From IMG/VR virus record IMGVR_UViG_2684623127_000006: a stretch of DNA of 64,000 bases. One strand, 5' to 3'. The first letter of the stretch is position 1, and every line of letters starts with the position of its first letter. Below, piece after piece: positions 397 through 476 of the stretch. This DNA comes from a virus (lineage: Duplodnaviria; Heunggongvirae; Uroviricota; Caudoviricetes). Made by a program: the position numbers and the translations under genes. The notes beneath the pieces were generated by a model, which was not told where the DNA came from, made no database searches, and saw only the letters and a program-made list of their open reading frames with translations.

Positions 397-476
397 TGGA
401 CCGCCATCGGGGACCCGGCCCCGCACCAACAACCCTGTTATGGTGTCGTCTGCTCTTCCTGATAAGCTAATGGCGG
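397..476 (-). tRNA. tRNA-like element, atypical; possible pseudo-tRNA at the argN position
   Basis: Acceptor stem and CCA identical to the tRNA-Arg(UCG) at 48319-48395, but T-loop is CCGGGT (6 nt, no TTCGA) and no canonical anticodon arm; 80 nt. Confidence 0.3.

Follow-up and report, generated by a model that had tools for sequence, protein, structure and literature searches.

What occupies the 100-nt gap between two transfer RNA (tRNA) genes of a prophage cluster, and does it still work as a tRNA? The question arises in the 64,000-nt stretch of DNA analyzed here (IMG/VR record IMGVR_UViG_2684623127_000006, hereafter the window), which comes from E. coli O157:H7 and covers two tandem lambdoid prophages. 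ARAGORN finds two tRNA clusters in the window, A and B, both on the minus strand. In cluster A, the gap between tRNA(CAU) and tRNA-Arg(UCU) is filled by an 80-nt tRNA-like gene at 397-476, separated by 7 nt from tRNA(CAU) and by 13 nt from tRNA-Arg(UCU), whereas the same slot of cluster B holds a tRNA-Arg(UCG). The six genes are as follows.

484-559, minus strand: tRNA(CAU), first gene of cluster A (ARAGORN; Rfam 72.5 bits)
397-476, minus strand: tRNA-like gene of 80 nt, long-arm form with a degenerate T loop (sequence, RNAfold and family model R1, described below)
307-383, minus strand: tRNA-Arg(UCU), argO-type, third gene of cluster A (ARAGORN; Rfam 67.3 bits)
48403-48478, minus strand: tRNA(CAU) of cluster B (ARAGORN; Rfam tRNA model)
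48319-48395, minus strand: tRNA-Arg(UCG), argN-type, 77 nt, in the same slot of cluster B (ARAGORN; Rfam 44.4 bits)
48229-48305, minus strand: tRNA-Arg(UCU) of cluster B (ARAGORN; Rfam tRNA model)

The answer that we favor, with a probability of roughly 55%, is that the allele in the window is a relic, probably co-transcribed with its neighbors, that would neither decode nor have a role of its own. The allele stands at the end of a series of decaying T loops, has lost a loop that the rest of its family retains, and belongs to a locus in which further damaged variants segregate, and it is for these reasons that we prefer this reading.

The anatomy of the gene, read from its sequence, carries the first part of the argument.

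476-470, minus strand: 5' strand of the acceptor stem
469-468, minus strand: U8 and A9
467-452, minus strand: D arm, GCUU-AUCAGGAA-GAGC
451, minus strand: A26
450-428, minus strand: 23-nt arm, GACGACACCAUAACAGGGUUGUU, which replaces the 17-nt anticodon arm
427-424, minus strand: variable region of 4 nt, GGUG
423-408, minus strand: T arm, CGGGG-CCGGGU-CCCCG
407-401, minus strand: 3' strand of the acceptor stem
400-397, minus strand: discriminator U and CCA

The minimum-energy fold of RNAfold is a complete cloverleaf with a 7-bp acceptor stem and an encoded CCA, with a z-score of only -1.5 to -2.1. The D arm has a 4-bp stem and an 8-nt loop in which A14, G18, G19, and A21 are all present. The long arm of the window allele is predicted to fold as GACGAC-A-CC[AUAACA]GG-GUUGUU with a 6-nt loop, while the commonest allele of this element, which carries ACACG for the window's ACACC, prefers AC-A-CGAUAAC[AGG]GUUGUUG-GU with a 3-nt loop; neither register gives a 7-nt loop with U33. 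The T arm keeps a 5-bp stem, closed by the 6-nt loop CCGGGU without UUCGA, and the positions of U54, U55, C56, and A58 are gone; in mature tRNA, U54 and U55 are the residues found as T54 and Psi55. The first-pass annotation had described an 80-nt gene with just such a T loop and no standard anticodon arm, and this description holds, there being no 5-bp stem with a 7-nt loop. The arm segment GATAACAGGGT of the commonest allele (locus L003 and others), in which the window allele (428-450) has C for the first G, matches what we take to be the core of the I-SceI site (TAGGGATAACAGGGTAAT), and GAUAACAGG is presumably a segment of the peptidyl-transferase ring of 23S ribosomal RNA; we judge both likenesses to be probably coincidental.

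Annotation tools are silent at this position. ARAGORN calls nothing between 307-383 and 484-559, the Rfam tRNA model RF00005 gives no match to 397-476 at E<=10 in searches of 1.2 kb or of 90 nt, and the NCBI Prokaryotic Genome Annotation Pipeline (PGAP) leaves the window allele unannotated. Against a gathering score of 29 bits for RF00005, the tRNAs of cluster A reach 67-72 bits and the middle gene of cluster B 44.4 bits, so that the comparison of both clusters by covariance model, proposed in the first-pass annotation, separates the two middle genes and upholds the 77-nt gene of prophage B as the tRNA-Arg(UCG) that it had been taken for. Weak matches to other Rfam models (YrlA, Plastid-ycf2, snoRNAs) were set aside as general tRNA-likeness or antisense matches to tRNAs. 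Arginyl-tRNA synthetase (ArgRS) of E. coli recognizes tRNA-Arg by A20, C35, and U or G at 36. Judged from its sequence, the window allele should be incapable of decoding, since it has no anticodon loop, no C35 context, and no T-loop elbow residues. Like a pseudogene, it combines clear homology to tRNA with the loss of features that are essential for tRNA function.

The two clusters align from a point just 5' of tRNA(CAU) through the terminator, over about 390 nt, with a mean column identity of 89%. The spacers around the middle genes are identical, and so are, within these genes, the acceptor stem CCGCCAU/AUGGCGG, the discriminator U, and CCA; the common flanks and acceptor stems had been noticed at first pass. 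The interiors diverge. The earlier statement that their interiors differ completely goes too far: the D arm and the T stem are homologous, and the difference lies in an exchanged anticodon arm and a degenerate T loop. The same holds for argN of the ileZ-argN-argO cluster of Shiga toxin (Stx) phages such as 933W, which has the slot, spacers, acceptor stem, discriminator U, and CCA of 397-476 and a homologous D arm and T stem. The centers of the two genes are, however, unrelated (12/28 aligned positions). In argN, which every tool calls, the anticodon arm is canonical, a 5-bp stem closed by the 7 nt CUUCGAA; the D loop measures 9 nt, and the T loop reads UUCGAGU. As for the first gene of cluster A, ARAGORN names 484-559 tRNA-Met and PGAP tRNA-Ile, and its homologue in phage records is ileZ.

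Of 5426 complete E. coli genomes, 1753 carry the long-arm element, some in as many as four copies, and it is also found in the deposited phage genomes mEp460 and phiP27 (an Stx2e phage), where only ileZ and argO are annotated. Among the 185,579 species-representative genomes scanned, the long arm is confined to E. coli and should therefore be young. In IMG/VR, it is paired with several T arms or T loops, namely the canonical CGGGG-UUCGAGU-CCUCG, GGCGGGU, GCGGGU, which is the commonest, and the window's CCGGGU, and argN(UCG) genes of the same collection carry UUCGGGU, CUCGGGU, and GGCGGGU. Arranged by their loops, the related loci form a series that runs from UUCGAGU/CCUCG through UUCGAGU/CCCCG, UUCGGGU, CUCGGGU or GGCGGGU, and GCGGGU to CCGGGU, so that the window allele would be the last and most degraded step of a stepwise decay. 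Intermediate steps are found with the argN(UCG) arm as well as with the long arm, which indicates recombination inside the 80-nt gene. An allele with the same arm and the canonical T arm matches exactly in at least 141 complete genomes, where PGAP annotates it as an 82-nt 'tRNA-OTHER'; it accounts for about 185 of the roughly 1750 genomes that bear the long arm (~10%). Of 81 positions aligned between it and the window allele, six differ. Long arm and position are the same in both, but tRNA-OTHER keeps CGGGG-UUCGAGU-CCUCG, and it is because of this canonical T arm that tRNAscan-SE, within PGAP, recognizes it as a tRNA of undetermined type.

Other lesions segregate in the element. In the 101 intact long-arm clusters from IMG/VR, eight elements have a C.A mismatch in the acceptor stem, one has a 1-nt deletion in the T stem, and one has a shortened T arm; a further seven long-arm loci are truncated, fused, or otherwise fail to parse as clusters. 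The neighboring tRNA-Arg(UCU) varies as well, with a 3' end CUA for CCA in 16 of the 101 clusters (e.g., L033-type) and a few copies with G52A or G53A in the T stem. Its compensatory T-stem swap between the two prophages, AGUGG/CCACU versus ACUGG/CCAGU, which the first-pass annotation pointed out, is real, and two copies of the gene in long-arm clusters join ACUGG with CCACU, the mismatched intermediate of this swap.

The element is best placed within a lineage, X, which we drew from scans anchored on different parts of the gene, plus one anchored solely on the upstream tRNA(CAU). X genes lie directly after tRNA(CAU) in many prophage clusters, in the order Met/Ile(CAU), X, and then Thr(UGU), Arg(UCU), or Gly(UCC). 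Some are ordinary tRNA-Arg(UCU) or tRNA-Arg(UCG) genes; in many others, very diverse loops of 3-13 nt are set in a retained frame of acceptor stem, 8-nt D loop, arm stem RYRRC/GUUGU, and canonical T arm, and ARAGORN labels such genes 'tRNA-???' with anticodons of two or four bases, or gives them identities including Ser(gga), Ser(gct), Leu(taa), and Gln(ttg). The gene at 397-476 shares with this lineage the slot directly downstream of tRNA(CAU), the acceptor stem CCGCCAY/RUGGCGG (here CCGCCAU) with the 8-nt D loop AKCRGGAA, and the arm stem RYRRC (ACGAC or AUAAC) with the invariant GUUGU and a non-canonical loop length. It lacks the canonical T arm UUCGAGR, having CCGGGU instead. The covariance model R1, built from 45 family members with no long-arm allele among them, matches 397-476 over its full length (61.0 bits, E=2.6e-14) with 21/21 pairs standard, a 10-nt loop insertion, and a 1-nt T-loop deletion; since R1 also gives the true tRNAs of the window 44-70 bits, this match speaks for compatibility, not specificity.

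The X member that dominates the metagenome matches, 81 nt long, is chromosomal. Of 5426 complete E. coli genomes, 5168 (95%) have it as a single copy, which lies between yahL and yahM; Pfam searches on YahL and YahM were uninformative. The K-12 copy (L467, NC_000913.3, ~345336-345416) is inside the annotated 60-aa open reading frame (ORF) xtpA (b4845), and the copy of strain E2865 is at 3001-3081 of its locus, L466. The sequence has canonical D and T arms and is preceded by a near-consensus promoter, TTGACA-17-CATAAT, with an ATG about 7 nt past the -10 hexamer. ARAGORN calls it tRNA-Ser(gga), PGAP makes no call in other strains, and the Rfam tRNA model misses it, as it misses 397-476. Its acceptor stem, D arm (8-nt loop AUCAGGAA), A26, and arm start AGACGACA are identical to those of the prophage element, and the two also agree in the motif CAGG, in GUUGU as 3' strand, in the variable region UGGU, and in the discriminator U and CCA. 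Overall, identity to the xtpA sequence is 87% for the intact prophage allele and 81% for the window allele. The two differ in setting and in detail: the xtpA copy is a single-copy orphan with its own near-consensus promoter, whereas the prophage copy lies between two tRNAs; the former has a canonical T arm and the 7-nt loop CAGGAUU, whereas the T loop is lost in the window allele; and relative to xtpA the prophage arm has a 4-nt insertion and 3+1-nt deletions. The tRNA-OTHER allele is 87% identical to the xtpA sequence (22/32 aligned positions in the center) and 79% to argN (12/28 in the center), and being nearer to xtpA, it identifies the window element as an xtpA-type allele in the argN slot rather than a mutated argN. 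Thus, of the first-pass proposal of a pseudo-tRNA, the inability to decode stands, with no 7-nt anticodon loop, no T-loop residues, and no call by ARAGORN, Rfam, or PGAP, but a decayed copy of the tRNA-Arg(UCG) of prophage B it is not, as its 5' half and central arm match the xtpA/X lineage instead, the same arm occurs elsewhere with a perfect T arm, and the gene still forms a cloverleaf from end to end. Sequence comparison places 397-476 as a descendant of the phage tRNA-Arg-related lineage X with a remodeled anticodon arm, its closest relative being the xtpA sequence.

How such a relic could persist depends on its setting, which is bounded by two candidate signals.

570-598, minus strand: promoter-like site, TTGATT-17-TATTAT (consensus scan, 9/12 matches), ending ~10 nt before the first tRNA
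275-294, minus strand: strong intrinsic-terminator-like hairpin, AGGCUCGC-UUCG-GCGGGCCU, then UUUUUU (scan), directly 3' of tRNA-Arg(UCU)

The TATTAT hexamer just 5' of tRNA(CAU) is retained in most upstream variants of related loci, and the hairpin with its T run recurs 3' of cluster B, changed at three bases, of which one is in the stem and two are in the loop. Gene order is the same at both clusters, with the Q region followed by the tRNAs, a TerB-family gene, DUF3927, a SASA esterase, and the lysis genes. Because the promoter-like site and the terminator-like hairpin bracket cluster A, its three genes look like one transcription unit inside the late region, in which co-transcription is probable. 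In the proposed mechanism, the tRNA-like gene 397-476, itself non-decoding, would take the place of argN in an operon of the ileZ-argN-argO type within the late region of a lambdoid prophage and would probably be transcribed together with both neighbors, either from the upstream promoter-like site or by Q-antiterminated late transcription. It is probably still excised by RNase P and the enzymes that trim 3' ends, as the perfect 7-bp acceptor stem, the D arm, and the encoded CCA are retained. Short, harmless, and linked to two useful tRNAs, the relic could persist and spread while being shuffled by recombination among co-resident lambdoid prophages.

Is the family to which this allele belongs under constraint? 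In a sample anchored on the upstream tRNA(CAU) alone, we compared 23 distinct X genes with non-canonical loops within groups of equal geometry. Segregating columns are rare in the stems (5/126) and at universally conserved tRNA positions (2/42), more frequent at normally free positions (7/37), and most frequent in the anticodon loop (10/17), with odds ratios of 5.4 for free against constrained positions (p=0.005) and 6.1 for the loop against free positions (p=0.005). A larger first sample gives the same ranking but was biased in ascertainment, its scan patterns demanding parts of the body, and the numbers in the upstream-anchored sample are smaller. The T loop is canonical in 22 of the 23 genes, so that its loss in the window allele departs from the family. 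Heavily deleted X remnants directly after tRNA(CAU) (L246, L285, L299, L278, and L282), in which ATCAGGAAGAG and CTCGATGGCGGTC alone are left, indicate that dead copies decay visibly. Covariation is limited to pair 7-66, where both sides change (CG 27, UA 18), all other stems being invariant or changed on one side; in some classes, MAFFT moved the register of the 5' strand of the arm, which lowered the paired fraction for that helix. The X sequences are closely related, and their conservation thus partly reflects youth. Taken together, these results argue moderately that X genes, even where they do not decode, are maintained as RNAs shaped like tRNA whose loop evolves fast.

Several observations weigh against the relic reading. 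Despite its non-decoding loops, the body of the X family appears, again on moderate evidence, to be under purifying selection. The element itself is very common, as the 1753 of 5426 genomes attest, and is found in phages mEp460 and phiP27. The window allele still folds as a complete cloverleaf in which the R1 alignment leaves no pair broken. In the 101 long-arm clusters, the element has as many haplotypes as the flanking tRNA-Arg(UCU), 12 each, in sequences that are highly similar. The xtpA relative, a tRNA-like sequence within the E. coli xtpA leaderless mRNA, is reportedly functional in a translated transcript, according to Muto and colleagues in 2022 (J Biochem 171:459; cited in PMC10767902).

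A possible alternative, which we consider less probable than the relic, is that 397-476, or at any rate the tRNA-OTHER allele, is a functional but non-decoding tRNA-like RNA in which the body and the arm stem matter and an anticodon does not. Expressed from the prophage tRNA operon, it might serve as a decoy or sponge for anticodon-arm nucleases or tRNA-binding defense and toxin proteins, or it might be a regulatory RNA resembling tRNA-Other of Bacillus cereus. The distribution of segregating columns in the upstream-anchored sample, few in stems and conserved positions and many in the loop, would be expected of such an RNA, as would the like ranking in the biased sample, the retention of RYRRC/GUUGU around loops of 3-13 nt, and the decay by deletion of truly dead copies, which displays what loss of constraint looks like. 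Phage tRNAs from the same type of cluster do counter tRNA nucleases (PMC12445682, PMC10264068), and by our own reading of the sequence, argN(UCG) (48319-48395) has, with its stem CCAGC/GCUGG and A37, the paired CNG motif reported for substrates of P2-OLD (PMC12445682). The motif is missing from the long arm and from non-canonical X stems, in which GUUGU pairs with RCAAC or ACGAC. On the other hand, the T loop, which the rest of the family retains, is gone from the window allele, truly compensatory change is confined to pair 7-66, close relationship accounts for part of the conservation, and a search of the window for a complement of the loop returned only the element itself; the decoy role, moreover, is one that we infer.

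Two further readings fare much worse. It is very unlikely that the sequence matters because it belongs to an mRNA or peptide, as in xtpA, or because it is a site in DNA, e.g., the core of a recombination or attachment site. The K-12 relative does lie inside the annotated xtpA frame, tRNA genes are classical targets of integrases, and the cluster is a recombination hotspot with mosaic alleles, the fusions L168 and L130, and truncations. However, tRNA genes lie only 7 and 13 nt away, no start codon context is present, and the sole minus-strand ORF that starts inside 397-476 runs through tRNA-Arg. Nor is the XtpA frame conserved: in E2865, a 1-nt indel (ctgtaccttagcatcg versus ctgtatcttacgcatcg; L466 2920-2985 versus L467 1953-2135) brings a stop after 21 codons, and the tRNA-like sequence downstream of it is unchanged. 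For a DNA site, no repeats or att-like duplications were seen. The least credible reading of all, to which we give hardly any weight, is that of a tRNA that does decode, through an unusual anticodon arm, and promotes, e.g., frameshifting or recoding. The cloverleaf fold, the intact acceptor stem, and CCA would suit it, and ARAGORN does assign odd anticodons to relatives (2- or 4-base; Ser, Leu, Gln). Against this, the arm cannot be drawn with a 7-nt loop that has U33 and a purine at 37; depending on register and allele, the hairpin that probably forms has a loop of 3, 6, or 11 nt. The T loop is without the residues needed for the tRNA elbow, and the variation of the loop in sequence and length among close relatives is incompatible with a fixed codon assignment.

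Known systems offer partial parallels. The tRNA-Other of B. cereus, a tRNA-shaped, non-translating pseudo-tRNA with a demonstrated function, sets the precedent for a regulator (PMC3399842), but it is unrelated to 397-476 in sequence and host and is not phage-borne. Nuclease-resistant phage tRNAs come from the same kind of cluster as 397-476, and in them, too, change is concentrated in the anticodon arm. They still decode, however, and replace the cleaved host tRNA (PMC10264068, PMC12445682, PMC11464382), which 397-476 should be unable to do; Thr(UGU) of phage 21 counters P2-OLD (PMC12445682), and anticodon-loop variants of phage tRNAs counter tRNA nucleases more generally (PMC10264068).

Remodeling is not limited to the middle slot, as in five argN-type IMG/VR loci the interior of argO past the first 7-8 nt of the acceptor stem is replaced by unrelated sequence (downstream variant GCGTTGTTGGTTCTGATGAGTGAATCATTGTC...). 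Two deletion fusions, in L168, where a junction at the D arm links the 5' half of X to the 3' part of tRNA-Thr(UGU), and in L130, where the 3' end of X is joined to the start of tRNA-Arg(UCU), point to recombination between neighboring tRNA genes. In phage PPompW_132418 (L125), the middle slot at 607-682 is annotated as tRNA-Lys(UUU), with the loop CCUUUAA (C33 for U33) and the acceptor stem CCGCCAC/GUGGUGG, and by its sequence this gene would represent another identity for the slot. Within the window, the tRNAs of cluster B have flaws of their own: a C11.A24 mismatch in the D stem of tRNA-Arg(UCG), whose score is only 44.4 bits, and a U6.C67 mismatch in the acceptor stem of tRNA-Arg(UCU). Between the prophages, at ~15200-18850, ISEc8 (IS66 family) lies within an IS256-family transposase pseudogene that adjoins a truncated integrase and nleG7.

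Pseudo-tRNAs and tRNA-like sequences are already known, as are the published xtpA relative and the PGAP flag tRNA-OTHER. What appears to be new is that the prophage element, tRNA-OTHER, and the xtpA sequence can be linked to one another, together with the allele series and the pattern of a conserved body with a hypervariable loop. Tentatively, and as a view that we hold to be rather unlikely, the window element might be a degraded member of an unrecognized class of phage-borne, non-decoding tRNA-like RNAs, in which the body and the arm stem are under purifying selection and the loop evolves faster than neutral in both sequence and length (3-13 nt), as expected of decoys or sponges against anticodon-arm nucleases (P2-OLD, PARIS, PrrC, colicins). 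The xtpA sequence would then be a member of this class that the core genome of E. coli has taken up.

For annotation, the findings mean that about one third of complete E. coli genomes hold an unannotated tRNA-shaped gene in prophage tRNA operons, and that about one tenth of the long-arm genomes carry an allele labeled only as 'tRNA-OTHER', to which the link with xtpA supplies a name and an origin. If the element is inert, it is a clear example of the stepwise decay of a tRNA gene and of within-gene recombination among co-resident prophages. The family-level reading would be considerably more interesting if confirmed by experiment: phage tRNA clusters are now understood as counter-measures to tRNA-cleaving defense systems, and a conserved body with a fast-changing, non-decoding loop would, if true, represent another strategy, that of the decoy rather than the replacement.

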